From positions 902,392 to 966,391 of the forward strand of contig OZ244239.1 in NCBI GenBank assembly GCA_965217115.1: a stretch of 64,000 bases of DNA. Reading direction: 5' to 3'. Every line of letters begins with the position of its first letter. Positions within the stretch are counted from its first letter, which is position 1. Shown here piece by piece: positions 740 to 62,424 of the stretch. This DNA is from Bdellovibrionales bacterium. Its GTDB lineage: Bacteria > Bdellovibrionota > Bdellovibrionia > Bdellovibrionales > CAYMLA01. Both the position numbers and the translations under genes were made by a program. Under the pieces are notes generated by a model that searched no databases, was not told the DNA's origin, and was given only the letters and a program-made list of their open reading frames with translations.

Positions 740-896
740 AATTCAACCATTCTAAACTAATTTTTACTAAGGTCACAAAAAAACTCTTTAAAATTATCGT
801 AAAAGTAGAATCAAACCTAGTCTAGGAAGAAAAACACCATTATTATGATATTTAGACTTTAATAGCCGCAAAAAACAGCCGAAAAGCTATGTGAAT

Positions 897-1694: not shown

Positions 1695-1831
1695 TAGGGG
1701 CTTTTGCGAATTTTCGCTCTTACTTTCTTATTTATTCCTCGTTTTTATAGGTAATCAGGTTTATATCCGATAAGTTTACATATACAATTAACGAACAATA
1801 CTCTCTCAACAAAACAAATTAGGATGCATCT

Positions 1832-4555
1832 ATGGGAAATCTAAATCGAGACGTGCTAGAATCTATCGTGAAACGAGTGCATTACCTAATGATACAAATG
1901 ATTCATATTGCCAACCACCGTAAAGAAAAAGTCAAAGGGGACCCTAAAGTAGGAGGACACCCTGCCGCTTGCGCATCTGCCCTACACATTATGGGAGCTA
2001 TTCACCTTATTGCAAAATCAGGGTTTGATCACGTCGTTAACAAGCCCCACGCTTCTCCTGTAGATCATTCCTATAATTATTTGCTTCGTCAGTTTTTCCA
2101 TGAAGATGGCACTGCTTTTTCAGACGAAGAAGCTAACAGAGTCATGCACTGCTTGCGTGCCTTTCCCCAAGAAAGCCAATCTCAAGCCCAACCCGTTTTT
2201 CAATCCTATCACTCGGCCTACGACCCTGATTACCATGGATTCTTACCATCCGGGACTGTCGGCATTCCTCCCGTCAATGCTGGTTACTTAGCTCTTGCCT
2301 ACCGCTATGCTGAAAAACATGGATACAAGGTTCCTGACGCTCATTTTTGGTGTCTTATGGGTGACTCTGAGTTCCGCGAGGGCTCTTTATTTGAAGCCAT
2401 TCCTGAATTTGCAGAACGACAATTGGGTAACCTCACTTGGATTTTAGATTACAATCGTCAAAGTCTCGACGGGCATCGTATGAATAATAAAAATATCATG
2501 GATGGCACTGACGATATACGTATAGAGAGAACCATGGAAGCCAACGGCTGGAATGTTATTCAAATTCGTCATGGCGCTCTCCGTCAAAGTCTATTTAAAA
2601 AGAAAGGAGGAGAGACGTTTCAAAAATTGATTGAAGACACTCTCGAAGATTATGAATTACAAGCCATCCTTATGGTCAAAGATATAAAATCCTTAAAAAA
2701 AGGTCTCATTCACTCACATCCTGATCTTAAGGACTTTCTTAAGAATGTGAGCGATAGAGAACTCTATGAGGGGTTTCGTGATTTCGGAGGGCATAACATT
2801 ATCACTATTGCCGACGCCCTTGAAGAAAGTAAAAAAGATCCTTTAAAACCAACCATGATTATCTGTCATACCTTAAAAGGTTGGCAGATGGATGCTGCGG
2901 CTATGCCTGGAAACCACTCAAGCCTCCCCACTGCCAAAGAAGTGGACAAACTAAGGGAAGCCCAGGGGATTTCACAGGAACAACTGTTCTCTCATTTTGC
3001 AGATTTCAGTAAAGAAGATAAATTTCTTCGCCAACGTGGGACTTCTATTCTCAAAGAAGTTCAAAATGAGAAAAAACTCAAAGAAAGTAATATCTTATTT
3101 TTTAGAGAAATAATGGAAAATTTCGGAAAGCTCCCTGACTCTCTTGATATTAATCTTAAGATGGCCAGTTACCCTCACACCCAATGGATGCTCGGACAAC
3201 TCACTGCTAAACTCACTCGCATTGCCAACACCCCTCTGGATGAGACAAAACTACAGGAGAAACAAAAACCTCTTAGTGATTTCGAAAAATCATGGAAACT
3301 CCCCAGTGAAGTTCTTGTCTCCATGGCTCCAGATGTGGGCACCAGTACCAACCTCAACCCAGCAATGAACGGAAAAATATTTGGCGCTGAAATTTCCACC
3401 GACCATGAAGCTGAGATGAATGTAAAAGATAGAAATACACCTGATTTGGTTCAACACGAAAATAACTCCAGCCGTTACATTCGCTTTGAAATTGCTGAAG
3501 CCAACACCATGTCCTGTGTCGGTTCTTTCGGGAAGATACGCGATATTCTTGGCATTCCTCTACTACCATTAATGACTGTTTACGATTTTTTTATTAAAAG
3601 AGCCTTAGATCAATACTTTTACAATATGTATTGGAGATCTAGCTTTATCCTTGTTGGAACTCCATCAGGTGTCACCCTCTCCTCCGAAGGAGCACAACAT
3701 GGTTGGAAATCAGATATTCAAATTCCCAATCAAATCACATGGGAACCTGCCTTTTGTATCGAGCTTGATTGGATCCTCTGTGATGCAATTAAGCGGCACA
3801 TGACCTTTAACAACGAAGGACGTAATGGTGTCGTCATACGTGGGGTCACTCGGGGGATTGAACAAAAAAATCTCATAAAATATCTACGTCAACAAACCCG
3901 TTTCAAAAATAATTGGGATGGAAGAGAAATCACTCACCATGATTTTCCCATGGACAACAGCACTGATGAATCCTCCCTCCCTTGCATTGACGACCTCTCT
4001 ATCATGGAACAATTAAGACAAGATGTCCTTGCTGGTGCCTATTACCTGATAGACTATCGCCACTACAGTAGCTATGACCCTGGAGACAATGTCATTAATA
4101 TCTTTGTCATGGGTTCTATGGTCACTGAAGGAGTTAAAGCCTCTGAATCTCTCTTGCAAAAAGGAATTTACGCCAATATTATCGTTGTTACTAGTTCGGA
4201 CCTTCTCGTTGGCAACCTTGGCCACGACAATGATTACTCCCACCTTAAACACGGATTAAATATCAATGGGAATCTCCACCTAAACTCCGACAATGCCACG
4301 TCATCTGAAGAATTCCAAACAATGGCTGGACGGCGGGTCCCCGTCGTCAGCGTTCATGACGGTGAGCCTGGACTACTCGATAATATCGGTTCCATCTTAG
4401 GTGTTAAACAACAAACTCTGGCTGTGCGCAAACACTCCCGCTGCGGACGACCTGATGATATCTATCAATACCACAGTATTAATCATCAAGCCATTGTTGA
4501 GGCTGTTGAAAAGGTTCTGTCTGAAACAGCGTTAGAAATGGTCTTGGCAAAATGA
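1832..4555 (+). CDS. Divergent AceE-like thiamine-diphosphate-dependent 2-oxoacid dehydrogenase E1 component (homodimeric type)
   Basis: 907 aa. Blocks align by eye to E. coli AceE: 'GGHPAACASA', 'MGDSEFREGSLFEAI...NLTWILDYNRQSLDG' (TPP GDG-N motif), 'GWNVIQIRHG', 'GGHN', 'HTLKGW', 'SEGAQHGW'. No E2/E3 genes adjacent. Confidence 0.75.
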   Translation: MGNLNRDVLESIVKRVHYLMIQMIHIANHRKEKVKGDPKVGGHPAACASALHIMGAIHLIAKSGFDHVVNKPHASPVDHSYNYLLRQFFHEDGTAFSDEEANRVMHCLRAFPQESQSQAQPVFQSYHSAYDPDYHGFLPSGTVGIPPVNAGYLALAYRYAEKHGYKVPDAHFWCLMGDSEFREGSLFEAIPEFAERQLGNLTWILDYNRQSLDGHRMNNKNIMDGTDDIRIERTMEANGWNVIQIRHGALRQSLFKKKGGETFQKLIEDTLEDYELQAILMVKDIKSLKKGLIHSHPDLKDFLKNVSDRELYEGFRDFGGHNIITIADALEESKKDPLKPTMIICHTLKGWQMDAAAMPGNHSSLPTAKEVDKLREAQGISQEQLFSHFADFSKEDKFLRQRGTSILKEVQNEKKLKESNILFFREIMENFGKLPDSLDINLKMASYPHTQWMLGQLTAKLTRIANTPLDETKLQEKQKPLSDFEKSWKLPSEVLVSMAPDVGTSTNLNPAMNGKIFGAEISTDHEAEMNVKDRNTPDLVQHENNSSRYIRFEIAEANTMSCVGSFGKIRDILGIPLLPLMTVYDFFIKRALDQYFYNMYWRSSFILVGTPSGVTLSSEGAQHGWKSDIQIPNQITWEPAFCIELDWILCDAIKRHMTFNNEGRNGVVIRGVTRGIEQKNLIKYLRQQTRFKNNWDGREITHHDFPMDNSTDESSLPCIDDLSIMEQLRQDVLAGAYYLIDYRHYSSYDPGDNVINIFVMGSMVTEGVKASESLLQKGIYANIIVVTSSDLLVGNLGHDNDYSHLKHGLNINGNLHLNSDNATSSEEFQTMAGRRVPVVSVHDGEPGLLDNIGSILGVKQQTLAVRKHSRCGRPDDIYQYHSINHQAIVEAVEKVLSETALEMVLAK

Positions 4556-4607
4556 GCTATTTTTTTTAGTAGACACTTAAAAAATGACTTAGCTTATCCA
4601 AATTAGA

Positions 4608-5540
4608 TCAACTACTTACTTGATTTCGACCATTAGACTTAGACCTATACAAAGCTTCATCCGCCTTTTTAAATAATTCATCCCACGATAGAATCTCAGA
4701 TGTTAAAGAACACAGCCCTAAAGATATTTTAATGGCCATCGTCTTTCCATCAAATGTAAAAACATGGTTCTCAACTTTGGTACGAGCCCTTTCCGCAACT
4801 TCAAGAGCATCGGTCTTAGAACTCCCTGCTAAGATCAATGTAAATTCCTCACCACCAAATCGCGCAAAGAAATCCCTGCTGCGAATGACACTGTTCTTTA
4901 TGACCTGACTTAGCTCTTTAATGACATAATCACCTGCAGAATGGCCATAGGTGTCGTTAACTTGTTTGAAATGATCAATATCAAAGATAATCACACTCAA
5001 CTCTTCCTTTAAAAGCCTCGCCCTTTTAAAAGCCTCGGGACCTTTATAGACTAATGCTCTTTTATTATAAATACCTGTTAAAGAATCCATTTGGGCTTTT
5101 TCAAAATTCTCTTGATTACTCATCGCCTCTAAATTTCCAGGGGCTAAATACTTAAAAATAACATTTCCTGTTTGAATCTGATCATTATCACCTAACTCCA
5201 CTGGAACCATTGGCATCAAAATATTCCCATTAATCAATGTTTTATTCGTTGATCCCAGATCAATGACAGACACTCCCGTATTCGCCACCATTATCTTAGC
5301 ATGAGCCTTGCTCACACTCCCTTCATCAATATGGATTTGTGCATTCACAGATCGTCCAATAACCAATTCAGAATCAATCAATTTCCACTGCTGTCCCATA
5401 TACTTAGACGGTCCAACCAACACCACAAAAAAAGGAGGCGTCTTTTCTGCTGCCTCTAATTTTTGATTAAACGTGTCACTGGGAGTAACACTGGTTTTTT
5501 CTTCATCAACTTCTTTATTCGACATTCTCGACCCCTGCAT
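4608..5540 (-). CDS. FHA-domain diguanylate cyclase (FHA + GGDEF)
   Basis: N-terminal FHA signature 'VIGRS...SKAHAKI...VIDLGSTNKTLING'. C-terminal GGDEF domain with an intact 'RFGGEEF' active site. Confidence 0.9.
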   Translation of the reverse strand: MQGSRMSNKEVDEEKTSVTPSDTFNQKLEAAEKTPPFFVVLVGPSKYMGQQWKLIDSELVIGRSVNAQIHIDEGSVSKAHAKIMVANTGVSVIDLGSTNKTLINGNILMPMVPVELGDNDQIQTGNVIFKYLAPGNLEAMSNQENFEKAQMDSLTGIYNKRALVYKGPEAFKRARLLKEELSVIIFDIDHFKQVNDTYGHSAGDYVIKELSQVIKNSVIRSRDFFARFGGEEFTLILAGSSKTDALEVAERARTKVENHVFTFDGKTMAIKISLGLCSLTSEILSWDELFKKADEALYRSKSNGRNQVSS

Positions 5541-8167: not shown

Positions 8168-8541
8168 ACCTTAACACTTATCGGGAATATTCTTAGAAAA
8201 ATTAACCTTCATAGGACTAAACAGAAATGGGCTTTTAGCTGTCTCAAATCAAGACACTCAATGGGATTTTGACAAAAAAGGACCTTTTCCTAGCTTTTTG
8301 AGCTTGTCTGTAAGAGCCAAAGGACTTTTGAGAATACAAAAAAGCCCCTCATTTTCCGATGGCCTTCTAACTGGTTTTTTTGTTGGTTGGCCAAACCTGT
8401 CAGAGAGAAGACAATGTATCTTCCTGTTATCGAGAGTTGATATAAGAGATAACTTAGTTTTAATAAAATTGACCAGGTTTATATTGCAAACATTGAAGAT
8501 TAACAGTTCTTAATAATGATATGTAAGCAGGAGACAGATCA

Positions 8542-8913
8542 ATGATTCGAGGAATTCACGATTTTTACTATAACGTAAAAAATATGGAAAAAGCGGTTCA
8601 ATTCTATACTGAGACATTAAATATGAAAGTCACTCATGGGTCAGAACACTGGACAAGTCTTGACTGTGAAGGTGTCATGATAGGTCTACACTGGAGTGGG
8701 GGCAATGATATCCCATCTTTTCCAAGAGATTCTCATGGTGCTCATTGTGGTGGGACTTTGACTTTAGTTAGCGATAATATACCTGAAGATCGAAAAATTT
8801 TAGAAGCAGCAGGTTCTAAAATTTTAGGTGAAATGGATGAACTCTGGGGACATATGCTGATTTTTGAAGATATAGATGGCAATGTTCTTAAACTTCAAAA
8901 CGCGAAGTATTGA
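8542..8913 (+). CDS. VOC/glyoxalase-family protein
   Basis: 123 aa with a glyoxalase-like pattern ('FYTETLNMKV', 'FEDIDGNVLKL'). SD 'caggaga' lies upstream of the ATG. Confidence 0.75.
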   Translation: MIRGIHDFYYNVKNMEKAVQFYTETLNMKVTHGSEHWTSLDCEGVMIGLHWSGGNDIPSFPRDSHGAHCGGTLTLVSDNIPEDRKILEAAGSKILGEMDELWGHMLIFEDIDGNVLKLQNAKY

Positions 8914-9050
8914 GGAGCATATTTGAGCCAATTTAATTTACAGACTAATGGGGGAACCGCCCCCCTAACTCAAGTGAATGAGCCTGTTTTTTAAACCTAA
9001 CCTCTTTGACTAAGCCCTTAGTTTTTAATAAAAGGACACGCATCAATTTA

Positions 9051-9809
9051 TTAAAAATGATAAATTAGATTAATAGCATTTTTCCTATGTTTTACCTTTG
9101 CACCATTTCTGTTAAGGCTTCTAAAAGCATCTGCTTGAAATTCATGTCTAGAATAAACAAACTCTAAACTAAAACCATTATGAAAATTTAAGCCTGCTTT
9201 TAGTGCCCTGTAGCTTCCATCAACATCTGTCTCTCCTTTTGTTCCATATTCTGGATCACCTGGAACTCCGCTGTAGTAACTTTTCGTCCACTTACCCTTT
9301 GTTTTTGCATAACCAGCTCCAACATAAGGGCTCACACCTCTTACTGCAGTAAATATATATAATCCACCAAAATAAATATCGATTGTCTCTACCTCAGATG
9401 AAGGTGAATCAACAACGATATCTACTGGGCCGGTCGCAGTGTTTTGTGTAAACGCAGAACCGTCATCATGTTTCAAAGCAATCTCTTGTCTTGGAGACTT
9501 TATTCTTGTTTTATAAATTCCAACTTCATATCCCCAACCTGTTTCTGGAATATATCTTAGATTATAACCAAAAGACGTACTTCTCTCAATGAGTGCATCT
9601 AATATATTTGCATTTTCCTCTGTTATATCCTCTGGATTAGTGCCTATAAAGTGTCCATAATCCAAATGCTTACCTGTTATATCACTCGTTGAATCTCCCA
9701 CACTGCTGCTAACAAGAAACCCATGTTTAAAGATTTCTTCAGCTTTTGCTTCCTGATTGTGTGTCACTGCTAAGATCATCGTCGCGAGAATAATTATATA
9801 TGTGTGCAT
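9051..9809 (-). CDS. Putative outer-membrane beta-barrel protein
   Basis: Signal peptide 'MHTYIIILATMILAV...AKA', alternating Gly/aromatic-rich strands and a C-terminal '...LIYHF' with terminal Phe. Confidence 0.55.
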   Translation of the reverse strand: MHTYIIILATMILAVTHNQEAKAEEIFKHGFLVSSSVGDSTSDITGKHLDYGHFIGTNPEDITEENANILDALIERSTSFGYNLRYIPETGWGYEVGIYKTRIKSPRQEIALKHDDGSAFTQNTATGPVDIVVDSPSSEVETIDIYFGGLYIFTAVRGVSPYVGAGYAKTKGKWTKSYYSGVPGDPEYGTKGETDVDGSYRALKAGLNFHNGFSLEFVYSRHEFQADAFRSLNRNGAKVKHRKNAINLIYHF

Positions 9810-10021
9810 AACGGCCTCTCCTTCATTGGTCTCGTTCTATCTCTTTAGGAGAAGAAACTCTTAAAGAGCGATCAAACATTATTAGTTTAAACAAACCTGT
9901 CTAAGCTAGCTAAAAGGTTTTCACCCTCTCTTTTAACACAGAGCATCAAAAGATGCCACCTTTTTCCGCTCTTGAGAACTTTTTACAAAAAAGGGTTTTA
10001 TGACTTATACTCGGGGGCTTA

Positions 10022-27710: not shown

Positions 27711-30647
27711 ATGAATAGCTTCTTTCCGTCACTTGATAACATGAACAATAATGAAGAGTTTATTTCAAGACACATTGGTCCTAATTCCTCAGAGACTCAA
27801 GAAATGCTACAAAGCTTAGGAGTTAGTGATTTTGATAGCCTCATTAATAAAACACTTCCTGAAAATATTCTCACGAAGAAAGATTTTGACTTAAAACACG
27901 CACAAACAGAACACCAAACTCTCAAAGAGATCAAAGCTCTCGCTAAACAAAACCAGATTTACCGTACTTACATTGGCATGGGGTTTCACGATACCATCAC
28001 ACCTCCCGTTATTCAGAGAAATGTTTTTGAAAATCCTGGCTGGTACACAGCTTACACCCCCTATCAACCAGAGATTTCACAGGGACGCTTAGAGGCTCTT
28101 ATTAATTTTCAAACCATGTGTTCTGAGCTCACTGGAATGGATATCTCTAATGCCTCTCTTCTCGATGAAGGAACTGCTGCAGCCGAAGCCATGATTTTGT
28201 GCCGCAATCAAATTCGTGATAAGAACAGGAAGACTTTCTTCATCAGCGACGACACCCATCCACACACTATTGAGGTTATCAAGACCCGCGCCCAACACTT
28301 GGATATAAATATACAAATCGGCCCTGTTGTCTCTACAGATTGGTCTCTGTGTTTTGGAGCATTGCTCTCCTATCCGAACACCTATGGTTCCATTGAGAAT
28401 ATGAGTTCGCTCATTGCTAAAATACAAGGAAATGGTGCTCTTGTTGCTGTTGCAGTAGATCTACTCAGCTTAACTATTCTCAAGCCTCCCGGGGAGATGG
28501 GTGCAAATGTTGTCGTCGGTAACACACAGCGCTTTGGTGTTCCACTTGGTTTTGGCGGTCCCCATGCCGCATTTATGGCCACACAAGATAAATTTAAACG
28601 CAGTCTTCCTGGCCGCATAGTCGGTGTTTCGGTGGATACTAAAGGACGCAAATCTTATCGATTGGCTCTACAGACACGGGAACAGCACATCCGTCGAGAG
28701 AGAGCATCAAGTAATATCTGCACCGCCCAAGTTCTTTTGGCCAATATGGCTTCTTTCTATGCTGTTTATCATGGTCCACAGGGGCTTATTCGTATTGCTA
28801 AACGTATTCACAAACTCACATCGGCACTCTACGAAGGACTGCAGTCTTTAGGTTTTGAATGTCTTCACGGAGATTTTTTTGACACAATCGTTCTTCGCAC
28901 AGTCACTCCATCTACTGAAAAAAAAGGACAGAAAAGCAACGACGAGATTTATCAAGAAGCATTGAATAAAAAAATTAACCTCAGAAAGGTCCCTCAAGGT
29001 TTAAGTATTTCCCTTAACGAAACAACGACTTCTGAGGATATTTCTGACATTTTAGAAGTTTTTAGTGGACAAAAAAGAGACCTCACAAAGCTCATCGCAG
29101 ATGCATCTAAAAAAATCCCTGATGACCTTATTCGATTATCTACTTTTATGACTCATAAGGTTTTTAACTCTTTTCACAGTGAAACATCCATGCTCCGTTA
29201 CATTCAAAAATTACAGAACAAAGATCTCTCACTCACGCAAGCCATGATTCCTCTAGGCTCTTGCACCATGAAGCTCAATGCCACCACAGAACTTATCCCC
29301 GTGTCCTGGCCTGAGTTTAATAAGATCCATCCCTTTGTGCCTTTAGATCAAGCCAAAGGTTATCTACAGCTCATCAAAGAAACGGAACAAATGCTTGCCA
29401 CTATCACTGGTTTCTCTTGCGTATCACTGCAACCCAACGCCGGCTCCCAAGGAGAGTTTGCAGGTCTACTTGTTATACGTCGCTACCAACAGGAGAAAAA
29501 TCAAGGGGAACGTAATATATGCCTCATACCCCATTCAGCCCATGGCACTAATCCTGCCAGCGCTGTTATGTCAGGACTTAAAGTCGTCGTCATCAAATGT
29601 GATAACGATGGTAATATTGACGTTGACGATTTAAAAAACAAAGCTCAAGAACACAAGTCCCACTTATCTAGTTTAATGATCACCTATCCTTCCACCCACG
29701 GAGTCTACGAAGAAACCATCCAAAACATCTGTAAAATTATTCACGATAACGGCGGACAGGTCTACATGGACGGAGCCAACATGAATGCTCTTGTCGGGTT
29801 GGCTCGCCTTCCCGAGTTAGGGGCCGATGTGTGTCATCTAAATCTCCATAAAACATTTGCCATTCCCCACGGTGGCGGCGGTCCAGGCGTTGGACCCATT
29901 GGCGTCGCAGAACATTTAAAAAACTTCCTCCCAAACCATGGACTCGTTCCTGAGGCTGGACCTATCACGGGAATTGGTTCTACGACCTCGGCTCCTTGGG
30001 GAAGCGCCAGTATTTTACCCATCTCTTGGGCATATATGAAGATGCTGGGAGGCAACGGCCTCAGAAAAGCCACTGAATATGCTATTTTAAACGCTAACTA
30101 CATTGCTAAGAAATTAGAAAACCATTATGAAATTTTGTACAAGGGAAAAAATGGCATGGTCGCCCACGAGTGCATTATTGATGTCAGACCCTTCAAACAA
30201 AGTGCGGGTGTCACGGTTGATGATATCGCTAAACGACTGATTGATTATAGTTTTCACGCACCAACAATGTCTTGGCCTGTCCCCGGAACTCTTATGGTGG
30301 AACCCACAGAGAGCGAAGAAAAAAAAGAACTGGATCGCTTTATCAATGCCATGATCCGTATTCGAAAAGAGATACAGGCTATTGAAGAAGGTGTCTACTC
30401 CCGAGAAGACAACGTTCTCAAAAATGCTCCTCATACAGTTGAAGGCCTCATTGCCCCCTCTTGGAGTCATGAGTATCCAAGGGACGAAGCTGCTTACCCT
30501 GTTCCTGGTTTAAGAGATAACAAGTACTGGGCTCCTATTACAAGAATCGACAATGCCTATGGCGATCGCAACTTAGTTTGCTCCTGTCCTGCCATAGAAG
30601 AATATGAGACAGAAGAATATGAAACAGAAGAACATGAAACGAAATAA
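27711..30647 (+). CDS. gcvP: Glycine dehydrogenase (decarboxylating), glycine cleavage P protein
   Basis: 978-aa single-chain P protein with 'GWYTAYTPYQPEISQGRLEAL', 'HLNLHKTF' (PLP Lys) and 'AYGDRNLVCSC'. Confidence 0.95.
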   Translation: MNSFFPSLDNMNNNEEFISRHIGPNSSETQEMLQSLGVSDFDSLINKTLPENILTKKDFDLKHAQTEHQTLKEIKALAKQNQIYRTYIGMGFHDTITPPVIQRNVFENPGWYTAYTPYQPEISQGRLEALINFQTMCSELTGMDISNASLLDEGTAAAEAMILCRNQIRDKNRKTFFISDDTHPHTIEVIKTRAQHLDINIQIGPVVSTDWSLCFGALLSYPNTYGSIENMSSLIAKIQGNGALVAVAVDLLSLTILKPPGEMGANVVVGNTQRFGVPLGFGGPHAAFMATQDKFKRSLPGRIVGVSVDTKGRKSYRLALQTREQHIRRERASSNICTAQVLLANMASFYAVYHGPQGLIRIAKRIHKLTSALYEGLQSLGFECLHGDFFDTIVLRTVTPSTEKKGQKSNDEIYQEALNKKINLRKVPQGLSISLNETTTSEDISDILEVFSGQKRDLTKLIADASKKIPDDLIRLSTFMTHKVFNSFHSETSMLRYIQKLQNKDLSLTQAMIPLGSCTMKLNATTELIPVSWPEFNKIHPFVPLDQAKGYLQLIKETEQMLATITGFSCVSLQPNAGSQGEFAGLLVIRRYQQEKNQGERNICLIPHSAHGTNPASAVMSGLKVVVIKCDNDGNIDVDDLKNKAQEHKSHLSSLMITYPSTHGVYEETIQNICKIIHDNGGQVYMDGANMNALVGLARLPELGADVCHLNLHKTFAIPHGGGGPGVGPIGVAEHLKNFLPNHGLVPEAGPITGIGSTTSAPWGSASILPISWAYMKMLGGNGLRKATEYAILNANYIAKKLENHYEILYKGKNGMVAHECIIDVRPFKQSAGVTVDDIAKRLIDYSFHAPTMSWPVPGTLMVEPTESEEKKELDRFINAMIRIRKEIQAIEEGVYSREDNVLKNAPHTVEGLIAPSWSHEYPRDEAAYPVPGLRDNKYWAPITRIDNAYGDRNLVCSCPAIEEYETEEYETEEHETK

Positions 30648-32409: not shown

Positions 32410-32466
32410 GTGATTATCTTATAATGATTTGATCAAAGAAACATCGTTTTTTTTCACATCTCTCTC

Positions 32467-33627
32467 TTATCGCACTATTCCTTGCTCCCCATGACTCCCT
32501 CCACCGTCACCCTGTGAATCTTTTTTTGGATGCTTCTTAGCAATCGCCTGTTGCACCTTTTCCTCACAAGTTTGATTATAATCGCCCATTATTTTAGCTG
32601 ATTTCTTAGACTGGAAGTTCTGCAAAGCTCCCTCGCAACAATCAGCAATGAGTGTTGTGAGCCCTTCTTTAAAAAGGGGTTTGAAATTCTTCTCTGCCAA
32701 TGCTTTTACATTAAATTCAACGTGATAGGTGAATGGGCTTTTCCCTAAATCTTTAAAAAAGGCTCCTGAGAAATCACTCTCTTGAACAAACCTAGGGTGT
32801 TCTTTGTCGGTTTTAGCAAATAAACCCTTTTCGTCCAGTTCCCTAAGACCATCCCCTGCAAATACAAGGATTTTATCACCACTTGATATATTTTTTATTC
32901 TTGGAAAACTAAAATCTCCATCTTTGATCCCTAAGGTGTACTTCTTGCCCCCTACTGTTATATCAGAAAATGATCGACCCTTCTTATCCCTGCGACAGGT
33001 AAATTCTGTTGGATTTAAAGACTCCAACAACCTTTCATCCGCGGAATCAACATTCTTGTATATAGTCATGCCTACCCAAGTTATACCAGCAATGACTCCA
33101 TTAATGGCAATTGAAATTGGCAACATATTAGCAGTTGTGATAACAATACCAACAGCATGGGCTTTAGGCGCTATTAATGATAAGAACACAGACGGTGATT
33201 TACTTGGTTTTTGATAGAGTTTATTTATCGCTGTGTAAAGGGAGCGAAAACTCCTATGGGAGGTCGCATTTAACTCTTTGCCATTAATAAGGAACTTTCC
33301 CTCAATGGCTTTTTGAAAACCGACGTTGACCTTCTCGCCACCCACCCTCATCACCAGATCATTGCCACTCACGGAGAGTTTTATCTTTTGGGATTTAGGT
33401 GTTTGCTCTATCAGATCTTGGATGAACTTCCTGTCGTCTTTCAACTTCAATATCTTCTTTAAACCAACGAACATCTCCCGCGCATGGACGCCATGGATCT
33501 GTTCATAGGCTCGACCCATTAACTCTTGATTCACATCACTCAAAGGAGTCCCAAACACGACGGGTGAAAAAAGCAAGCCCACCATAGATGTAAAAAAAAC
33601 TGACATCAGTAAAACCATTCTCTTCAT
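32467..33627 (-). CDS. Secreted paralogue 1 of a tandem four-gene family (unknown function)
   Basis: SD 'ggaagg' 6 nt before ATG 33627. Signal peptide 'MKRMVLLMSVFFTSMVGLLFSPVVFG'. Has the conserved N-domain, a unique hydrophobic segment (about 33040-33153) and a Cys-containing C-domain. Confidence 0.75.
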   Translation of the reverse strand: MKRMVLLMSVFFTSMVGLLFSPVVFGTPLSDVNQELMGRAYEQIHGVHAREMFVGLKKILKLKDDRKFIQDLIEQTPKSQKIKLSVSGNDLVMRVGGEKVNVGFQKAIEGKFLINGKELNATSHRSFRSLYTAINKLYQKPSKSPSVFLSLIAPKAHAVGIVITTANMLPISIAINGVIAGITWVGMTIYKNVDSADERLLESLNPTEFTCRRDKKGRSFSDITVGGKKYTLGIKDGDFSFPRIKNISSGDKILVFAGDGLRELDEKGLFAKTDKEHPRFVQESDFSGAFFKDLGKSPFTYHVEFNVKALAEKNFKPLFKEGLTTLIADCCEGALQNFQSKKSAKIMGDYNQTCEEKVQQAIAKKHPKKDSQGDGGGSHGEQGIVR

Positions 33628-33672
33628 CAGAAACCTTCCATTCAAATTCAATGGGTTTTTCATGTGCTGCTC

Positions 33673-34845
33673 TTATTTCACTGTTGTTCTATTATTAGTC
33701 GTTCCATCATCACCTGATGAATCTTTTTTTGGATGCTTTTTAGCAATCGCCTGTTGCACCTTTTCCTCACAAGTTCGACTCCTAGCGCCCATCGTTCCAT
33801 ATGATCTCTTATTAAATTGGAAGTTCTCCAAAGCTCCATCGCAACAATCAGCAATGGCTGTGAGCCCTACTCTTAAAAAAGGCTTGAAATTTTTCTCTGC
33901 CAATTTTTTTAACCCACGTTTATCACCTTGATAAAAGCGGCTGCTTTTATAGTCTCTAAAAACAGCTTTTGAGAAATCACTCGCCTGAACAGATTTAGGG
34001 TATGGCTCGGTTCTAATAACTGAACCCCTTCTGTACCGTCCCCTAAAACCATCATTTGCAAATATAATCTCTCTTTTATGCCCATCAGCCTTACCAACTG
34101 ATATGCTTTTTATTCTTGGACGATTAAACGCTCCATCTCTGATCTTTAAGGTGTACTTCTTGCCCCCTACTGTTATATCAGAAAATGACTGATCATCCTT
34201 ATCCCTGCGACAACTAAATTCCGTTGGATCTAAAGATTGCAGCAGCCTTTCATCCATAGGAGTGCCTCCAAGATTCGTATCTGACCCTAGAAAATCTATA
34301 CCATTAAGAATTGAGGGTATAAGAATTACAGGAGTCATTGCAGCAATAGCAGAAGTAGCTATCAAACCAAGAGCATAGGCTTTAGGCGCTATTAACGATA
34401 AAAACACAGACGGTGATTTACTTGGCTTTTGATAGAGTTTATTTATCGCCGTGTAAAGAGACCGAAAACTCCTATGGGAGGTCACATTTAACTCTTTGCC
34501 ATTAATAAGGAACTTTCCCTCGATGGCTTTTTGAAAGCCAACGTTGATCTTCTCTCCCCCCACACTCATCACCAGATCATTGCCACTCACGGAGAGTTTT
34601 ATCTTTTGGGATTTAGGTGTTTGCTCTATCAGCTCTTGGATGAATTTCCTGTCGTCTTTCAACTTCAATATCTTCTTTAAACCAACGAACATCTCCCGCG
34701 CATGGACGCCATGGATCTGTTCATAGGCTCGACCCATTAACTCTTGATTCACATCACTCAAAGGAGTCCCAAACACGACTGGTGAAAAAAGCAAACTCAC
34801 CATAGATGTAAAAAAAACTGACATCAGTAAAACCATTCTCTTCAT
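33673..34845 (-). CDS. Secreted paralogue 2
   Basis: Same architecture as paralogue 1. Start ATG 34845 after 'aaggaaggtctgtg'. Unique segment at about 34255-34374. Confidence 0.75.
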   Translation of the reverse strand: MKRMVLLMSVFFTSMVSLLFSPVVFGTPLSDVNQELMGRAYEQIHGVHAREMFVGLKKILKLKDDRKFIQELIEQTPKSQKIKLSVSGNDLVMSVGGEKINVGFQKAIEGKFLINGKELNVTSHRSFRSLYTAINKLYQKPSKSPSVFLSLIAPKAYALGLIATSAIAAMTPVILIPSILNGIDFLGSDTNLGGTPMDERLLQSLDPTEFSCRRDKDDQSFSDITVGGKKYTLKIRDGAFNRPRIKSISVGKADGHKREIIFANDGFRGRYRRGSVIRTEPYPKSVQASDFSKAVFRDYKSSRFYQGDKRGLKKLAEKNFKPFLRVGLTAIADCCDGALENFQFNKRSYGTMGARSRTCEEKVQQAIAKKHPKKDSSGDDGTTNNRTTVK

Positions 34846-34889
34846 CACAGACCTTCCTTTCAAATTCAATGATTTTTCATGTGCTGCTC

Positions 34890-36071
34890 TTAGTGCACTG
34901 CCGGAGTATCCCTAAAACGCACTCCACCGTTATCTTGTGAATCTTTTTTTGGATGCTTTTTAGCAATCGCCTGTTGCAGCTTTTCCTCACAAGTTCGACT
35001 CCTAGCGCCCATCGTTCCATATGATCTCTTATTAGATTGGAAGTTCTCCAAAGCTCCCTCGCAACAATCAGCAATGGCTGTGAGCCCTACTTTTAAAAAA
35101 GGCTTGAAATTTTTCTCTGCCAATTTTTTTAACCCACGTTTATCACCTTGATAAAAGCGGCTGCTTTTATAGTCTCTAAAAACAGCTTTTGAGAAATCAC
35201 TCTCCTGAACAGGTTCAGGGCGGTATGGCTCGGTTCTAATAAAAAGTAAACCATTTCTGTACCGTCCCCTAAAACCATCATTTGCAAATATAATCTCTTT
35301 TTTATGCCCATCAGCCTTACCAATTGATATACTTTTTATTCTTGGGCGATTAAACGCTCCATCTCTGATCTTTAAGGTGTACTTCTTGCCACCCACTGTT
35401 ATATCAGAAAATGGTTGATCATCCTTATCCCTGCGACAACTAAATTCCGTTGGATCTAAAGATTGCAACAGCCTTTCATCCATAGGAGTGCTTCCAAGAT
35501 TCGTATCTGCCCTTAGAAAATCCAGAACAGTCCAAATTGTGGGAGCAACAATTGCACCAAGCATTGCACCAATACCAACACTAGCTATCAAACCAACAGC
35601 ATGGGCTTTAGGCGCTATTAATGATAAAAACACAGACGGTGATTTACTTGGTTTTTGATAGAGTTTGTTTATCGCCGTGTAAAGGGACCGGAAACTCCTA
35701 TGGGAGGTCGCATTTAACTCTTTGCCATTAATAAGGAACTTTCCCTCAATGGCTTTTTGAAACCCGACGTTGATCTTCTCGCCACCCACCCTCATCACCA
35801 GATCATTGCCACTCACGGAGAGTTTTATCTTATGGGATTTAGGTGTTTGCTCTATCAGCCCTTGGATGAATTTCCTGTCGTCTTTCAACTTCAATATCTT
35901 CTTTAAACCAACGAACATCTCCCGCGCATGGACGCCATGGATCTGTTCATAGGCTCGACCCATTAACTCTTGATTCACATCACTCAAAGGAGTCCCAAAT
36001 ACGACTGGTGAAAAAAGCAAGCCCACCATAGATGTAAAAAAAACTGACATCAGTAAAACCATTCTCTTCAT
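34890..36071 (-). CDS. Secreted paralogue 3
   Basis: Same architecture. The C-domain is about 90% identical to paralogue 2 by eye. Unique segment at about 35481-35597. Confidence 0.75.
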   Translation of the reverse strand: MKRMVLLMSVFFTSMVGLLFSPVVFGTPLSDVNQELMGRAYEQIHGVHAREMFVGLKKILKLKDDRKFIQGLIEQTPKSHKIKLSVSGNDLVMRVGGEKINVGFQKAIEGKFLINGKELNATSHRSFRSLYTAINKLYQKPSKSPSVFLSLIAPKAHAVGLIASVGIGAMLGAIVAPTIWTVLDFLRADTNLGSTPMDERLLQSLDPTEFSCRRDKDDQPFSDITVGGKKYTLKIRDGAFNRPRIKSISIGKADGHKKEIIFANDGFRGRYRNGLLFIRTEPYRPEPVQESDFSKAVFRDYKSSRFYQGDKRGLKKLAEKNFKPFLKVGLTAIADCCEGALENFQSNKRSYGTMGARSRTCEEKLQQAIAKKHPKKDSQDNGGVRFRDTPAVH

Positions 36072-36166
36072 CATAGACCTTCCTTTCAAATTCAATGATT
36101 TTTCATGTGCTGTTCTTAACCAATACTCTTTAAGCAGAGAAATGCTAAATTTTAAACACCTCTCTC

Positions 36167-37336
36167 TTATCGCACTATCTGACTATCCTTACCAGACACT
36201 CCACCGTCACTCTGTGAATCTTTTTTTGGATGCTTTTTAGCAATTGCCTGTTGCACCTTTTCCTCACAATTTCGCTTATCAGCGCCCATCGTTCCATATG
36301 AGATCTTAGCCTGGAATTTCTGCAAAGCTCCCTCGCAACAATCAGCAATGGCTGTGAGCCCTGCTTTTAAAAAAAGTTTGAAATTCTTCTCTGCCAATGG
36401 TCTTACCGTGTCTGAATCTTTTTCGTAAAAGCGCCTGCTTTTATGGTCTCTAAAAACAGCTTTTGAGAAATCACTCGCTTGAACAGACCCAGGGGTTCCT
36501 GTGTCCTCTCTAAAAATGGTACCATTTTTGTACAGTCCCCTAAAACCATCATTTGCAAATGTCATCGTTTTTTTATCCCCATCATCCTTACCAACTGATA
36601 TACTTTTTATTCTTGGAAAACTAAACGCTCCATCTCTGATCTCTAAGGTGTACTTCTTGCCCCCTACTGTTATATCAGAAAATGATTGCCCCTTCTTCCT
36701 GCGACAACCAAAGTCCGTTGGATTTAAAGACTGCAACAAGCTTTCATCCGCACCAATAGCTCCAAAACCAATACCCATCTTTGTAGATATAAAGTCATTA
36801 GAAAACGCAACAGCGGTAGCAACTCCTGCTGCTGCTGCTGCTGCTACACCCAACATAACACCAGCATGGGCCTTAGGCACTATTAATGATAAAAACACAG
36901 ACGGTGATTTACTTGGTTTTTGATAGAGTTTGTCTATCGCCGTGTAAAGGGACCGGAAACTCCTATGGGAGGTCGCATTTAACTCTTTGCCATTAATAAG
37001 GAACTTTCCCTCAATGGCTTTTTGAAACCCGACGTTGATCTTCTCGCCACCCACCCTCATCACCAGATCATTGCCACTCACGGAGAGTTTTATCTTATGG
37101 GATTTAGGTGTTTGCTCTATCAGCCCTTGGATGAATTTCCTGTCGTCTTTCAACTTCAATATCTTCTTTAAACCAACGAACATCTCCCGCGCATGGACGC
37201 CATGGATCTGTTCATAGGCTCGACCCATTAACTCTTGATTCACATCACTCAAAGGAGTCCCAAACACGACTGGTGAAAAAAGCAAGCTCACCATAGATGT
37301 AAAAAAAACTGACATCAGTAAAACCATTCTCTTCAT
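36167..37336 (-). CDS. Secreted paralogue 4
   Basis: Same architecture. The unique segment at about 36746-36862 includes a (GCA)6 Ala6 run at 36827-36844. Confidence 0.75.
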   Translation of the reverse strand: MKRMVLLMSVFFTSMVSLLFSPVVFGTPLSDVNQELMGRAYEQIHGVHAREMFVGLKKILKLKDDRKFIQGLIEQTPKSHKIKLSVSGNDLVMRVGGEKINVGFQKAIEGKFLINGKELNATSHRSFRSLYTAIDKLYQKPSKSPSVFLSLIVPKAHAGVMLGVAAAAAAGVATAVAFSNDFISTKMGIGFGAIGADESLLQSLNPTDFGCRRKKGQSFSDITVGGKKYTLEIRDGAFSFPRIKSISVGKDDGDKKTMTFANDGFRGLYKNGTIFREDTGTPGSVQASDFSKAVFRDHKSRRFYEKDSDTVRPLAEKNFKLFLKAGLTAIADCCEGALQKFQAKISYGTMGADKRNCEEKVQQAIAKKHPKKDSQSDGGVSGKDSQIVR

Positions 37337-37526
37337 CACAGACCTTCCTTTACAAGAACTCTTTAAAATTCACCACTGACATAGTGTATAACACTCCAAT
37401 CCCGGGTCCTAGTTCCATTCCTCATTTCCATTTTAATTCTTGGCTTAAGACTGGAAGTGAACTAGACCTTTGTGTTATGTAAATTTCTTAAGATCTCTTG
37501 CAAAAAAAACCCGAAATCGCCCGATC

Positions 37527-39239
37527 TCAAAGGCTCTTGCCCCCTCGATAACGATACAGAGGCAGGTAATTAGGATAGAGTTTTTCAATTTTCTCAATCC
37601 AATATTTTTTTCGCTTTGAAGTTTTTAACAACCCCATATAAGCAGGGAGAAGGCGACTGTTTATCTTTAAAGCCTCTTGCCAACGACTCTTAGCACATTT
37701 TAACTTGTTTCTCTCAGCACAAATTGATCCTTCTATTAAAAAAGGCAGGGCATATTTCTTGCTTTTTTGGGCAACTCTTCCTGATGAGATTGCCTCTCCA
37801 TCTTGCCCTGTTCTTCTCAAGTAAAAGGCTCGAATTGTCTGAACAAAGCCATCCTTTGGAGCCATGAACACAGCCTCGTCAATAAATTTAGTCGCCTCAT
37901 GCTCCCTCTGGGATAAAACCAAGCACAAGGAATAAAGAGCTCTCTGTCTACTCTTTCTTAAAAGATTCTCTGAAACAAATTTACATTCATCAAATAAATC
38001 AATCCAATCAATATCACTTTTATAAACTAAGATATCCCTGTAATAATTCTGTGGGCTATCTCCTAAAGCATCTAAAAAGCCCCTTAGAAACCTCCCCTCC
38101 TTTTTCGTATTTCCCAGTATTGCACTGTAAGCTTTCAACAAAAAAGCGGGCGCTCTATAAGGGTTTAACTGATCAGTCACAATTTTCAATGCCTGATTAG
38201 CTCTCAATAAAATTTTCCCCCGCTCTTTGCCTTGAAGGTTTTTTTTATACTCCTTTAAATACCCCCAACCAGAGATAAAGTAAGATAACAGAGAGGACTC
38301 TCCAACCTCCATCACTTCCTTAGAGGATGTTTTTAAATTTCTCCATTGCTTTTGATGGAAATTTAACATCATTTTATTTAACAGAGCTGAAGTGAAATTT
38401 CCGTTAATACTTAAAGCCTTCAACAGTTGATTTTCAGCTTGCTCCCAATCATTGCTCTCCATATAGAGAAGGCCCAAAGCCGTGTAAACCTCCACTGCGA
38501 CTTGCCTCCCTCTCTTAGATGCAAGCAAGGACTCTAATTCCCTCCGAGCAGCAACTCTCTCTCCCTTCAGAATCATACGCAAAGGAGATAGCTTCACTAA
38601 AATCTCTGATTGATTGGGGATTAAAACATCTGCTTGAGATAAAAAACTCCACGCACCTTCATAATCACCCACCTGATAAGAATCCCATCCTTTATTTGCC
38701 AAGTTTTCAAAATTATTTATTTTAGATTTAAACACACTGTTTTTGATTAAAAAAAACACTCCTGATATGAGAATAAATGCCACGACTGTGACCCACAGGT
38801 ATTTTCGATAGGATGAGATTTTTTTTTCAACCTCTCTCTCTATATTTGAACCAAAACGCTTTTCTGCTTTTTTACTTTCCCCCTTAATAAGTTCCTCTGG
38901 CAATACAAACTCAGGATCTGTTTTATCAAAATTACCAACATCCAGAACATCTGTGTCCGTAATTGTATTATTAATACTTACGGTTCTTGTCTTATCATTC
39001 AGAGAGAGATTTGTTCTCTCTATCGTGCTGTCCATCATCTCTTCTCTTAATTTGGAAAAATGAGGCTCTAAAGAGATTTGACAATATCTTCCGAAGGGCT
39101 GACAAATCTCATCGTCATCGATAAGGTTTCCATTTTGTAAATGCTCTGCAATTTCATTATAACTATAGGGACCAAGTAGCTCACCATTAGAGCGAACAAG
39201 CCATTTTTTTATTTGTTTATCATTCTTCTTTAAAGACAC
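37527..39239 (-). CDS. GYF_2-domain / TPR-repeat membrane protein
   Basis: N-terminal 'WLVRSNGELLGPYSYNEIAEHLQNGNLIDDDEI' (GYF_2-like), one TM helix ('YLWVTVVAFILISGVFFLI'), then TPR-like repeats. Confidence 0.65.
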   Translation of the reverse strand: MSLKKNDKQIKKWLVRSNGELLGPYSYNEIAEHLQNGNLIDDDEICQPFGRYCQISLEPHFSKLREEMMDSTIERTNLSLNDKTRTVSINNTITDTDVLDVGNFDKTDPEFVLPEELIKGESKKAEKRFGSNIEREVEKKISSYRKYLWVTVVAFILISGVFFLIKNSVFKSKINNFENLANKGWDSYQVGDYEGAWSFLSQADVLIPNQSEILVKLSPLRMILKGERVAARRELESLLASKRGRQVAVEVYTALGLLYMESNDWEQAENQLLKALSINGNFTSALLNKMMLNFHQKQWRNLKTSSKEVMEVGESSLLSYFISGWGYLKEYKKNLQGKERGKILLRANQALKIVTDQLNPYRAPAFLLKAYSAILGNTKKEGRFLRGFLDALGDSPQNYYRDILVYKSDIDWIDLFDECKFVSENLLRKSRQRALYSLCLVLSQREHEATKFIDEAVFMAPKDGFVQTIRAFYLRRTGQDGEAISSGRVAQKSKKYALPFLIEGSICAERNKLKCAKSRWQEALKINSRLLPAYMGLLKTSKRKKYWIEKIEKLYPNYLPLYRYRGGKSL

Positions 39240-60358: not shown

Positions 60359-61012
60359 TTAAAAAAATCCCCCTTGATTTCCCTGATTATTCTCAAAAAA
60401 ATCAAAATCAATGCTGATAGCTGCCGCTAATATAATTGCTTTCTGTGATGATTCCCAGCTCCAATCACCAAAATCAATGGAAAAGCTGTCTGCATCACTA
60501 AAGGCTTCCTTCAGCAGTCCCTGCCATTTTTTATTAATTTCTCCGATTTTCTGATGACGGTTATTAAAAACCGAAAAGCGCCATAACTGCCATAATGGAG
60601 AACTAATACGACCAAAAATATTTCCATCTCTCTCGACAAGGTCATACTTTTTATACAATAACCCAAAACGGCGACGGACACACCCTATATACTGTCCTCT
60701 GTCATCCATAACGTTTAACTCAGAAAACAAAAAGAAAAAGTTTCTTGAGAAAAATAGCAGAGGGGATTTTTCGGTATTCATCACATCTATCTCTAAGGAC
60801 CGATGAGAACGTAAAATCCAACGTTTTAACTTCGTTGACCAGTTTCCTCCTCTTTCAACAATAACAGCCAAATGTCCACCGTTAGAATTCAAAAGATTAT
60901 AATAATTCTTTGCTTCCCAGTCTATAAGGATCTCCATCCACTCTTTTTTCTGTGAAACAATTAAGCTTTTTTCTAAATCCAATAACTGTTGATATGATAT
61001 AACTAATTTCAT
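60359..61012 (-). CDS. Phospholipid-scramblase-family (PLSCR/tubby-like fold) protein
   Basis: Colinear by eye with human PLSCR1. 'EAKNYYNL' parallels 'ETNNKYEI'. 'KKWQGLLKEAFSDADSFSIDF...KAIILAAAISIDFDFFE' parallels 'KHWTGILREAFTDADNFGIQF...KAVMIGACFLIDFMFFE'. ATG 61012 starts 2 nt after the murF stop. Confidence 0.75.
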   Translation of the reverse strand: MKLVISYQQLLDLEKSLIVSQKKEWMEILIDWEAKNYYNLLNSNGGHLAVIVERGGNWSTKLKRWILRSHRSLEIDVMNTEKSPLLFFSRNFFFLFSELNVMDDRGQYIGCVRRRFGLLYKKYDLVERDGNIFGRISSPLWQLWRFSVFNNRHQKIGEINKKWQGLLKEAFSDADSFSIDFGDWSWESSQKAIILAAAISIDFDFFENNQGNQGGFF

Positions 61013-61014
61013 CC

Positions 61015-62424
61015 TCAATCCTTCAAGCCTAATTGCTCTGATACTCCCCATTTTTGCAGAATTCTCTCTAACTTCATTCCACGAGAACCTTTAAGGACAA
61101 CCAGTTCAAACTTATCTAAGCAATTGCCATATTCATCAGCCCACTTTTCTAAAAAAGATTTCGATGAACGAAACTGACCTGAAAAATTAGCCCTCTTCAA
61201 ACCTTCATTAAAAGAGACAACACTCTCACCAATGAACCAAATTTCATCGGAATTCTTGCCAGCTAAATATCCAACCTCTTCATGGGCTTTTTCCCTCTCT
61301 TGACCCATCTCTAGCATTTCACCCAAAATAACTAAAGATTTTCGTTCTTTTCTGGAAGTTCTTGCAAGGTTCTGAAAAAGAGCTTTCATGCTTTCTGGAT
61401 TAGCATTGTATCCATCAAAAATAATTTTCGTCTTATCTTTCTTTAAGACTTGATTTCGCCCCCAATAGCTCTGACAAAACTTCAGCCCACACCAAATATC
61501 TTCTCCTTCAAGCCCCACAGACAGAGCTAAAGCACTTGCCGCCATTAAATTTTGTCCATTATGCAAGCCAAAAACATTTACTTCACAAGAGCCTGTAACT
61601 CCTCCCACTCTTCCATCAATACGCAGTGGCTCAAACCCCTGAGCCTTAACATTTAAATTTACATCACAATTCATTTCTTTTTGGCTAAAAGTTTTTATTT
61701 GATCATTAGTATTTTTAAATTTCCCCATCATCTTTAATGTCAAAGGATCATCTAAGTTGAATACTCGTATGATAGAATCTGAATTATGATAAATCTCCTC
61801 TTTAGCTTGAGCCACCTCCTCTAAAGAAGAAAAGAACTCCATATGGGCTCTACCAATATTCAAACACACCACGACATTTGGTTCAGCAATTTCCACTAAA
61901 CGCGCTAATTCACCTTTATGGTTCATGCCCATTTCGCAAATAACTATTTCACTATTTTCCTCGGCTCCAAGTAATGTGAATGGAACTCCCCAATGATTAT
62001 TAAAACTTCCTCGACTCTCATGAACTTTTTTAAACTTTTCTATTATTTTTTTTGTAAACTCTTTGGTTGTCGTCTTACCGTTAGAGCCTGTAATACCAAT
62101 TACTTTAAATTTATTACGACGACGCCAGTAGTTTGCTAGATCTTGAAGCCCCCTTAAGGTGTCTCTAACTTTTATCACTGTGACTTTTCGACTCACCTTC
62201 ACATCAACATCTTCATGGACAATCAAACAACTCGCCCCTTTTTCCACTGCTTGTATTAGAAAAAAATGACCATCAAATTGCTCTCCCTTGAGAGCAAAAA
62301 ATATTTTCCCCTCTAGATTATTACGCGTGTCACTGCCCGTGCCAGAAAAATCAGTCTGCACCTGAGAGACAACCTCTCCACCTGTATTCTCCTGTAATTC
62401 CTTAAGAGTTAATTTCCATGCCAT
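61015..62424 (-). CDS. murF: UDP-MurNAc-tripeptide--D-alanyl-D-alanine ligase
   Basis: 'GITGSNGKTTTKE', 'EMGMNHKGE' and 'DGYNANP'. Confidence 0.93.
   Translation of the reverse strand: MAWKLTLKELQENTGGEVVSQVQTDFSGTGSDTRNNLEGKIFFALKGEQFDGHFFLIQAVEKGASCLIVHEDVDVKVSRKVTVIKVRDTLRGLQDLANYWRRRNKFKVIGITGSNGKTTTKEFTKKIIEKFKKVHESRGSFNNHWGVPFTLLGAEENSEIVICEMGMNHKGELARLVEIAEPNVVVCLNIGRAHMEFFSSLEEVAQAKEEIYHNSDSIIRVFNLDDPLTLKMMGKFKNTNDQIKTFSQKEMNCDVNLNVKAQGFEPLRIDGRVGGVTGSCEVNVFGLHNGQNLMAASALALSVGLEGEDIWCGLKFCQSYWGRNQVLKKDKTKIIFDGYNANPESMKALFQNLARTSRKERKSLVILGEMLEMGQEREKAHEEVGYLAGKNSDEIWFIGESVVSFNEGLKRANFSGQFRSSKSFLEKWADEYGNCLDKFELVVLKGSRGMKLERILQKWGVSEQLGLKD

Follow-up and report, generated by a model that had tools for sequence, protein, structure and literature searches.

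Polymorphic toxin systems (CdiA-CT, Rhs-CT, MafB) consist of a conserved N-terminal part, a demarcating motif and a variable C-terminal part. In pore-forming colicins, a hydrophobic helical hairpin is recognised in the membrane by the cognate immunity protein. Glycine-zipper effectors, either membrane-depolarising or translocating, have been described; these are TelE and EsxX, LXG toxins of type VII secretion systems, and Tde1 of a type VI secretion system (T6SS), in which the zipper is N-terminal. In the lpl cluster of Staphylococcus aureus, tandem lipoprotein-like paralogues are made of parts with incongruent histories, which result from homologous recombination between copies (Tsuru & Kobayashi 2008, PMC2568036). 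We report here on four tandem, co-oriented paralogues, c1 to c4, found in a 64,000 nucleotide (nt) stretch of a Bdellovibrionales bacterium (GCA_965217115.1, contig OZ244239.1, positions 902,392–966,391 of the forward strand), called hereafter the window. Each copy encodes a protein with a signal-like N-terminus and a central hydrophobic block. The hypervariability of this block is real and statistically supported, with non-synonymous changes (dN) in excess of synonymous ones (dS).

In its evolutionary logic the array resembles tandem recombining exported families and polymorphic systems, and by the tests run it is a member of none of them. As in the lpl cluster, exported paralogues lie in tandem and recombine between copies. 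However, the central region of lpl is conserved and its flanks are variable, whereas the array shows the opposite, and its proteins have no lipobox but a hydrophobic mid-segment. As in polymorphic toxins, the 5′ part is very conserved, variability starts abruptly after a PKAHA motif, and dN/dS is elevated downstream. In contrast to these toxins, the downstream halves remain homologous (70–90% at the amino acid (aa) level), no immunity genes are present, and the proteins are small (∼390 aa) and carry an ordinary Sec signal, the ∼39-codon block alone being truly cassette-like. For TelE, EsxX and Tde1, the active membrane element is a short Gly/Ala-rich hydrophobic stretch, and c3 and c4 match the pattern (G/A/S)xxxGxxxG. 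In the array family, however, a zipper is present in two of nine variants only, the segment occupies the middle of the protein, with a folded half on either side, and there is no LXG or T6SS domain, immunity gene or nearby secretion system. Finally, like the colicin hairpin, the block is uncharged and rich in Ala and Gly, and specificity inside the membrane could reside in its sequence, but it is 22–35 residues long, versus a two-helix hairpin within a ten-helix bundle, it has no Pfam or PDB match to a pore domain, and no immunity gene goes with it. Here and below, absences of enzymes, toxins and secretion systems refer to the scanned window open reading frames (ORFs) of at least 150 aa.

Results

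Non-synonymous changes exceed synonymous ones in the variable block

Mean pairwise nucleotide identity between copies, measured over 45-nt sections, was 94–100% over the first ∼500 nt, fell to 44–61% in the block, and was 67–94% downstream. The blocks of c2 and c3 can be aligned with each other (type A), while those of c1 and c4 represent unrelated types (B and C). More variants were provided by a related metagenome contig, L001 (positions 1–5119), which carries at least five tandem copies, m0 to m4, versus four in the window. The block of m4 matches that of c2 exactly, those of m0, m1 and m2 are further c2/c3-type variants, and m3 has a fourth, unrelated type. Frameshifts in two of the L001 copies are probably assembly errors, the contig having a 2x coverage.

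Ratios of dN to dS (omega) were derived from Nei-Gojobori counts and significance from Fisher tests, the alignable type-A set being composed of c2, c3 and the L001 copies m0, m1, m2 and m4. The N-terminal half had an omega of ∼0.1–0.2, and dS between any copies was only 0.02–0.15. For the C-terminal half omega was ∼1, conserved stretches alternating with fast-evolving patches where it reached 5–7 (residues 259–285 and 356–370 in c3). Within the type-A block, the proportion of synonymous differences (pS) was 0.00–0.07, against 0.12–0.29 for non-synonymous ones (pN). Between c2 and c3, which both come from the finished genome, 23.8 non-synonymous differences were counted for 86 sites, versus 2.2 synonymous differences for 31 sites (P = 0.009). 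When the independent pairs c3–m0 and c2–m1 were combined, the excess of dN over dS in the block reached P = 8.8e-5. Copies m0 and m1 have nearly identical C-terminal halves (pN 0.013), yet they differ at 24% of the non-synonymous sites of the block. Variable sites of the type-A block were distributed as 21, 15 and 7 over codon positions 1, 2 and 3. Unrelated block types reach a pS of 0.37–0.59; therefore, the low pS within type A cannot be put down to codon bias. The block appears to be under positive selection, with statistical support in type A, and not merely tolerant of change; the proposal, in an earlier reading of this sequence (hereafter the original prediction), that the segment is being diversified was borne out.

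The N-terminal half groups c3 with c4 (dS 0.02), whereas the C-terminal half groups c2 with c3 (dS 0.056 versus 0.16). These conflicting groupings show that recombination or gene conversion between copies is active, its tracts ending at the variable block.

Template-like copies of the block were not found in the window, up to three mismatches to the invariant scaffold being allowed, nor was any reverse transcriptase, recombinase, invertase, integrase or transposase among the scanned ORFs of at least 150 aa. Substitutions in the block were of all nucleotide types and not adenine-specific. Thus, none of the hallmarks of a diversity-generating retroelement (template repeat, reverse transcriptase, adenine-specific changes) was found in the window. 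The array has no meaningful inverted repeat, and all copies are full-length and co-oriented. One 24-nt inverted match (33082–33105 and 34325–34348) joins the c1 and c2 segments, with both arms inside variable blocks; it is 79% complementary with an 11-nt exact core, which is near chance. A diversity-generating retroelement or shufflon was rejected for the window on these grounds.

The block keeps its hydrophobic character

A run of 22–35 uncharged residues was present at the same position in every variant, whereas 26% of the residues are charged elsewhere in the proteins. The chance of such a run is ∼0.74^25 = 5e-4 per independent variant, and it recurred at an equivalent position in four sequence types unrelated to one another as well as in a distant homologue, P0008 (see below). 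Kyte-Doolittle means over 19 residues were 1.76–2.22. The Eisenberg mean hydrophobicity over 21 residues (<H>) was 0.60–0.76, with a hydrophobic moment (muH) of 0.02–0.20. The segment is uniformly hydrophobic and has no amphipathic face. Its length and hydrophobicity suffice for one bilayer span, and it is too short for a two-helix hairpin. Beta-type periodicity was absent from its variability profile.

These data bear on several statements of the original prediction. The four peptides it quoted had been read correctly, and its four coordinate ranges are the variable blocks, 35481–35597 corresponding to residues 167–205 of c3. Its description of the segments as membrane-helix-like, and of a hydrophobic character maintained while the sequence is not, agrees with the values above. 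The amphipathicity calculation it had suggested gave muH values that never exceeded 0.20, in a segment that allows one span only. The four segments had also been said to lack any sequence similarity. This holds for c1 and c4, which are unrelated to the others beyond composition, but not for c2 versus c3, which have 10 of 25 core residues in common (a level reached by 0 of 300 shuffles) and 69–76% nt identity. Similarly, the term Gly/Ala-rich is appropriate for c4 only, where Gly, Ala and Ser make up a fraction of 0.53, versus 0.25–0.32 in c1 to c3.

The small-xxx-small spacing (i,i+4) ascribed to all segments was not enriched over the whole variant set, with 33 occurrences versus 27.8 in composition-preserving shuffles (P ∼0.1). 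Spacing of small residues at i+3 was enriched more (43 versus 28.9). Strict glycine-zipper patterns were found in c3 (SVGIGAMLG) and c4 (STKMGIGFG), so that the zipper-like description stands for these two. As a family feature it was not retained, since the motif, (G/A/S)xxxGxxxG or GxxxGxxx(G/S/T), is absent from c1, c2, m0–m3 and P0008, that is, from seven of nine variants. The c4 segment also contains a perfect (GCA)6.7 tract (36826–36845) coding for an AAAAAA run. This tract is in-frame and slippage-prone, and could alter the helix length.

Organisation of the array and of its proteins

The four genes, located by the ORF list and alignments, occupy positions 32467–37339 on the minus strand and encode proteins of 390–401 aa. 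Protein and DNA alignments give a repeat unit of ∼1.2 kb, and the listed ORFs are separated by 9–71 nt. A Shine-Dalgarno-like GGAAGG is placed 6 nt ahead of the conserved ATGAAGAGAATG in all four copies. Because this GGAAGG-N6-ATGAAGAGAATG arrangement is common to them, the real start of every copy is probably the M of MKRMVLL. Coordinates are given in Table 1.

Table 1. Positions in the window of the four paralogues (from the ORF list and alignments), of their variable segments, and of the parts of c3.
Feature	Position	Strand	Remarks
Paralogue c1	32467–33663	-	398 aa as listed; probable true start at the ATG of MKRMVLL, 33627
Paralogue c2	33673–34869	-	Probable start 34845
Paralogue c3	34890–36095	-	Probable start 36071; identical to database protein P0001
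Paralogue c4	36167–37339	-	First array gene in the transcription direction
c1 variable hydrophobic segment	33040–33153	-	Type B, unrelated to other copies
c2 variable hydrophobic segment	34255–34374	-	Type A; can be aligned to c3 and to m0, m1, m2 and m4 of L001
c3 variable hydrophobic segment	35481–35597	-	Type A, residues 167–205, VGLIASVGIGAMLGAIVAPTIWTVLDFLRADTNLGSTPM; the only type-A segment with a strict glycine-zipper match
c4 variable hydrophobic segment	36746–36862	-	Type C, Ala-rich; contains the (GCA)6.7 tract
c3 signal-peptide-like N-terminus	35994–36071	-	MKRMVLLMSVFFTSMVGLLFSPVVFG; invariant across copies except one G/S position
c3 conserved N-domain	35598–35993	-	Residues 35–166, ends LIAPKAHA (PKAHA, 35598–35612)
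c3 C-terminal half	34890–35480	-	Residues 206–401, basic (isoelectric point (pI) 9.7), variable tail

Every copy has the same layout: a signal-like N-terminus, an N-domain, the PKAHA motif, the variable hydrophobic block and a basic C-terminal half. The N-terminus reads MKRMVLLMSVFFTSMV(G/S)LLFSPVVFG, with an invariant basic n-region and hydrophobic core. The assignment as a cleavable signal peptide is sequence-based, and the h-region of the window copies is long and could be an uncleaved anchor. The N-domain (∼130 residues) is free of Cys and terminates in LI(A/V)PKA(H/Y)A across copies. An internal signal-peptidase cleavage at AHA| was considered and set aside as improbable, the preceding hydrophobic stretch being short and of the wrong orientation and length. 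In the C-terminal half (∼190 residues, pI 8.6–9.9 across copies and 9.0 in P0008), the conserved stretches are DE.LLQSL.PT.F.CRR, FSDITVGGKKYTL, IADCC.GAL and CEEK.QQAIAKKHPKKDS. Four Cys are conserved in this half of c3 (C220, C344, C345 and C369), among which is a vicinal CC pair.

A narrowly distributed orphan family

Searches of single proteins and of a profile against Pfam, NCBIfam, PHROGs, PADLOC and PDB sequences returned nothing usable for the array proteins, and an Rfam scan of the window gave no match. A search of 5.8 billion proteins recovered only the four proteins of this genome, which is one 2.17-Mb contig, and fragments from L001, a 5.1-kb ENA metagenome contig. A full hidden Markov model scan of 1.84 billion representatives added a single distant homologue, P0008 (289 aa, E = 2.8e-4). 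GTDB genomes, JGI metagenomes (protein pattern and exact DNA) and viral contigs yielded no other member. The family thus appears, from these searches, to be an orphan that was previously undescribed, with an extremely narrow lineage range.

P0008 is encoded by a single-copy gene and is 25% identical to the array proteins, with an hhalign probability of 95.6% over the N-domain through P-x-A-H-A. Its signal peptide is of the classical cleavable type (SDSAFA|KS). It carries AIEGKFILNG (AIEGKF.(I/L)NG in the family), then VVPEAHA (P-(K/E)-A-H-A in the family), followed by a 22-residue hydrophobic stretch, FLPLIPIAAGITALGVAGIAYA, and a basic C-terminal part with the same C...CC...C pattern. Since this distant homologue has the same layout, the hydrophobic segment and its preceding motif are ancient architectural features rather than an accident of the array.

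On L002, P0008 lies 15 nt downstream of a gene (8390–9985) for a 531-aa outer-membrane beta-barrel-like protein (weak OMP_b-brl match, C-terminus ...LEFLF), and an RHS/YD-repeat protein and genes resembling Tad and type II secretion systems lie a few kb upstream. The beta-barrel-like protein is not homologous to the protein encoded upstream of the array (see below), and a shared upstream partner was rejected.

Genomic context

PurH, encoded beside the array, has 59% and 57% identity to its two best matches, which belong to a Bdellovibrionales and a Bdellovibrionaceae metagenome-assembled genome (MAG). The genome is therefore a deep relative of that group. Gene order in the relatives is purH, a gene for a GYF/TPR protein, a gene for a small secreted lipoprotein (217–246 aa), and yhaM. 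The lipoprotein gene is missing from the window, and the array fills its slot (flanks 37340–37526 and 32410–32466). The lipoproteins of this slot in relatives (L007 9247–9900, L010 3905–4618, L013 7132–7872) share 26–31% mutual identity. They have no similarity to the array proteins, and descent of the array from the lipoprotein was rejected. The GYF/TPR protein of the window (37527–39239, minus strand, 570 aa) has an N-terminal GYF_2-like motif, a TPR region and a hydrophobic stretch; Bdellovibrionales MAGs retain it as the gene product next downstream of purH, at 20–24% identity.

The rest of the window is composed of housekeeping genes: purH, the mla transporter, alr, gcvP, rsmI, yhaM and the dcw cell-division cluster. 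Among the scanned ORFs of at least 150 aa, none was assigned to a secretion system or a toxin. No immunity-like ORF is present between or beside the copies, only antisense or overlapping chance ORFs occurring in the array, and Pfam, NCBIfam and PADLOC revealed no LXG, PAAR, Rhs or other toxin- or secretion-linked domain in the array proteins. Within the dcw cluster, a gene for a Scramblase-family protein (PF03803, E = 6.7e-43; 60359–61051, minus strand) separates murF from mraY and overlaps the murF end. GcvP (27711–30647, plus strand, 978 aa) ends with an acidic repeat tail, EEYETEEYETEEHETK. The GC skew is negative over the whole window, 1–64000 (cumulative −6.3), and the minus strand carries the majority of genes.

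Discussion

The array proteins have a common architecture, a central segment that is constantly hydrophobic, and a mosaic history; dN exceeds dS in the block, and the window holds no apparatus for programmed diversification. Our leading account of these facts, held tentatively, is that the segment is the membrane anchor of a family of single-pass exported proteins, with selection driving its diversification and gene conversion keeping the 5′ half of the genes homogeneous. A signal peptide together with one uniformly hydrophobic stretch of 22–35 residues is most simply understood as a single-pass membrane protein. The lineage-restricted family would be exported by Sec and adopt a type I topology: after the signal peptide, the N-domain would be periplasmic, P-K-A-H-A would lie at the membrane surface, the hydrophobic helix would span the membrane, and the basic C-terminal half would be cytoplasmic. 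Tandem duplication would have built the array in a slot of the core chromosome. Gene conversion or unequal recombination would hold the signal peptide and the N-domain nearly identical, while positive selection would drive the helix and the patches of the C-terminal half apart, within a hydrophobic alphabet for the helix. Older variants would have diverged, or been replaced, past alignability. Positive selection on an anchor helix implies a sequence-specific contact within the membrane, and the specificity of this contact may be the reason for diversification, each paralogue pairing with a different membrane partner or evading a membrane-embedded antagonist.

Several observations weigh against this account. 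The four conserved Cys with their vicinal CC, and the patchy selection in the C-terminal half, fit a disulfide-bonded external domain better than a cytoplasmic one; if the C-terminal half were external, the segment would not span the inner membrane of the producer once. The flank on the C-terminal side of the helix is acidic in the window copies, whereas it is basic in P0008, and Lys/Arg counts beside the helix are ambiguous. Simple Hessa-scale sums, from −0.6 to +2.4 kcal/mol, are marginal for membrane integration or stop-transfer. Helical periodicity of the variability, with a peak at 100–105 degrees (AP 1.54), was not significant (P = 0.37). AlphaFold2 models were unusable for both c3 (mean pLDDT 37.8, 6-sequence alignment) and P0008 (37.6, 7-sequence alignment). 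As to the selection tests, the region was picked for its variability and has only 39 codons, and L001 is known at 2x coverage.

A further possibility, to which we give less credit, is that the hydrophobic helix itself is the recognition element, a positively selected, membrane-embedded specificity code in a family of the Bdellovibrionales lineage, for which the N-domain would provide common delivery or docking. Such a code would let the proteins select different membranes of a target (prey), or different membrane proteins, or penetrate them; alternatively, it would give paralogue-specific helix-helix pairing. The confinement of dN >> dS to the hydrophobic segment, the orphan status of the family, and its tandem amplification with copy-number variation make this reading compatible with the data.

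The array proteins may also be fully exported effectors, whose segment would insert or form pores in the membrane of a prey or competitor and be diversified by an arms race. The segment is hydrophobic yet rich in Gly, Ala, Ser and Thr, and segments with such marginal Hessa sums can cross Sec without arrest. Strict zippers occur in c3 and c4, and glycine-zipper membrane toxins are established elsewhere (TelE, EsxX, Tde1). Antagonistic co-evolution predicts dN > dS in the block and omega of at least 1 in patches of the C-terminal half, as observed. The four conserved Cys, with their CC pair, hint at disulfide bonds within an exported domain, the sharp boundary after a conserved motif resembles the demarcation of polymorphic toxins, and the host is Bdellovibrionales-like. 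However, the copies have no immunity-like ORF between or beside them, the proteins contain no toxin, LXG, PAAR, Rhs or other secretion-linked domain, and the 64 kb encode no secretion system. Moreover, the zipper is lacking in most variants, P0008 included, the segment is non-amphipathic and too short for a two-helix hairpin, and the C-terminal halves stay homologous instead of being swapped for unrelated toxin folds. No positive evidence was thus obtained for the pore-forming, prey-targeting role put forward as speculation in the original prediction, the neighbours being housekeeping genes, and we regard an effector function as unlikely.

Known immunity proteins that counter pore-forming toxins do so within the membrane, and tandem amplification is frequent among immunity genes. 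A membrane-anchored protective array, in which the variable helix and C-terminal half would recognise and neutralise different membrane-acting toxins or phage proteins, shares the structural features of the single-pass anchor account, and accords with the tandem amplification, with the copy-number difference between strains, and with positive selection concentrated on the membrane helix. In contrast, no cognate toxin gene was found nearby, PADLOC gave no match, nor was any other defence match obtained, and the strict conservation of the periplasmic N-domain would be unexplained. This proposal is purely inferential, and we consider it quite improbable.

We are equally doubtful that nothing adaptive takes place, the segment being a low-constraint anchor or linker in need of hydrophobicity only, which looks hypervariable as gene conversion of the flanks stops there. 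Gene conversion clearly acts on the 5′ half, as seen from its low dS (0.02–0.15) and incongruent groupings, membrane anchors tolerate many substitutions, and the region was chosen post hoc for its variability. Drift or escape from conversion would, however, raise pS too, as is the case between unrelated block types. Within type A, pS of the block is at the level of the flanks, while pN is several-fold above both pS and the pN of the flanks, and the codon-position spectrum is the reverse of the neutral expectation. Neutral drift is therefore disfavoured, dN exceeding a dS that remains flank-level.

Lastly, the cassette could undergo programmed diversification, whether through a diversity-generating retroelement, through a site-specific shufflon or by transfer of sequence from silent cassettes. 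This could be suspected from the sharp block boundaries, from a variation that falls chiefly on the first two codon positions and leaves T in the third, which bears a superficial likeness to AAY-templated mutagenesis, and from the slippage-prone tract of c4. With no template-like copy in the window, no reverse transcriptase, invertase or integrase among the scanned ORFs of at least 150 aa, substitutions of every type, and full-length, co-oriented copies whose inverted repeat is at chance level, it is extremely unlikely.

As a rule, the segments of a protein that span a membrane either rank with its slowest-changing parts or do no more than tolerate drift. A helix of transmembrane type in which dN is several-fold above dS, in recent duplicates whose flanks are kept identical, points to specific recognition within the membrane. 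The family is unseen by every domain library, and the array would be annotated as four times “hypothetical protein”. If the selection signal holds in more strains, the array would be a compact natural experiment on helix-helix specificity, in which copies differ in the helix and in parts of the C-terminal half but share an almost constant N-terminal half. In a predator-related lineage, such recognition could concern prey entry, self-protection or the choice of envelope partners.

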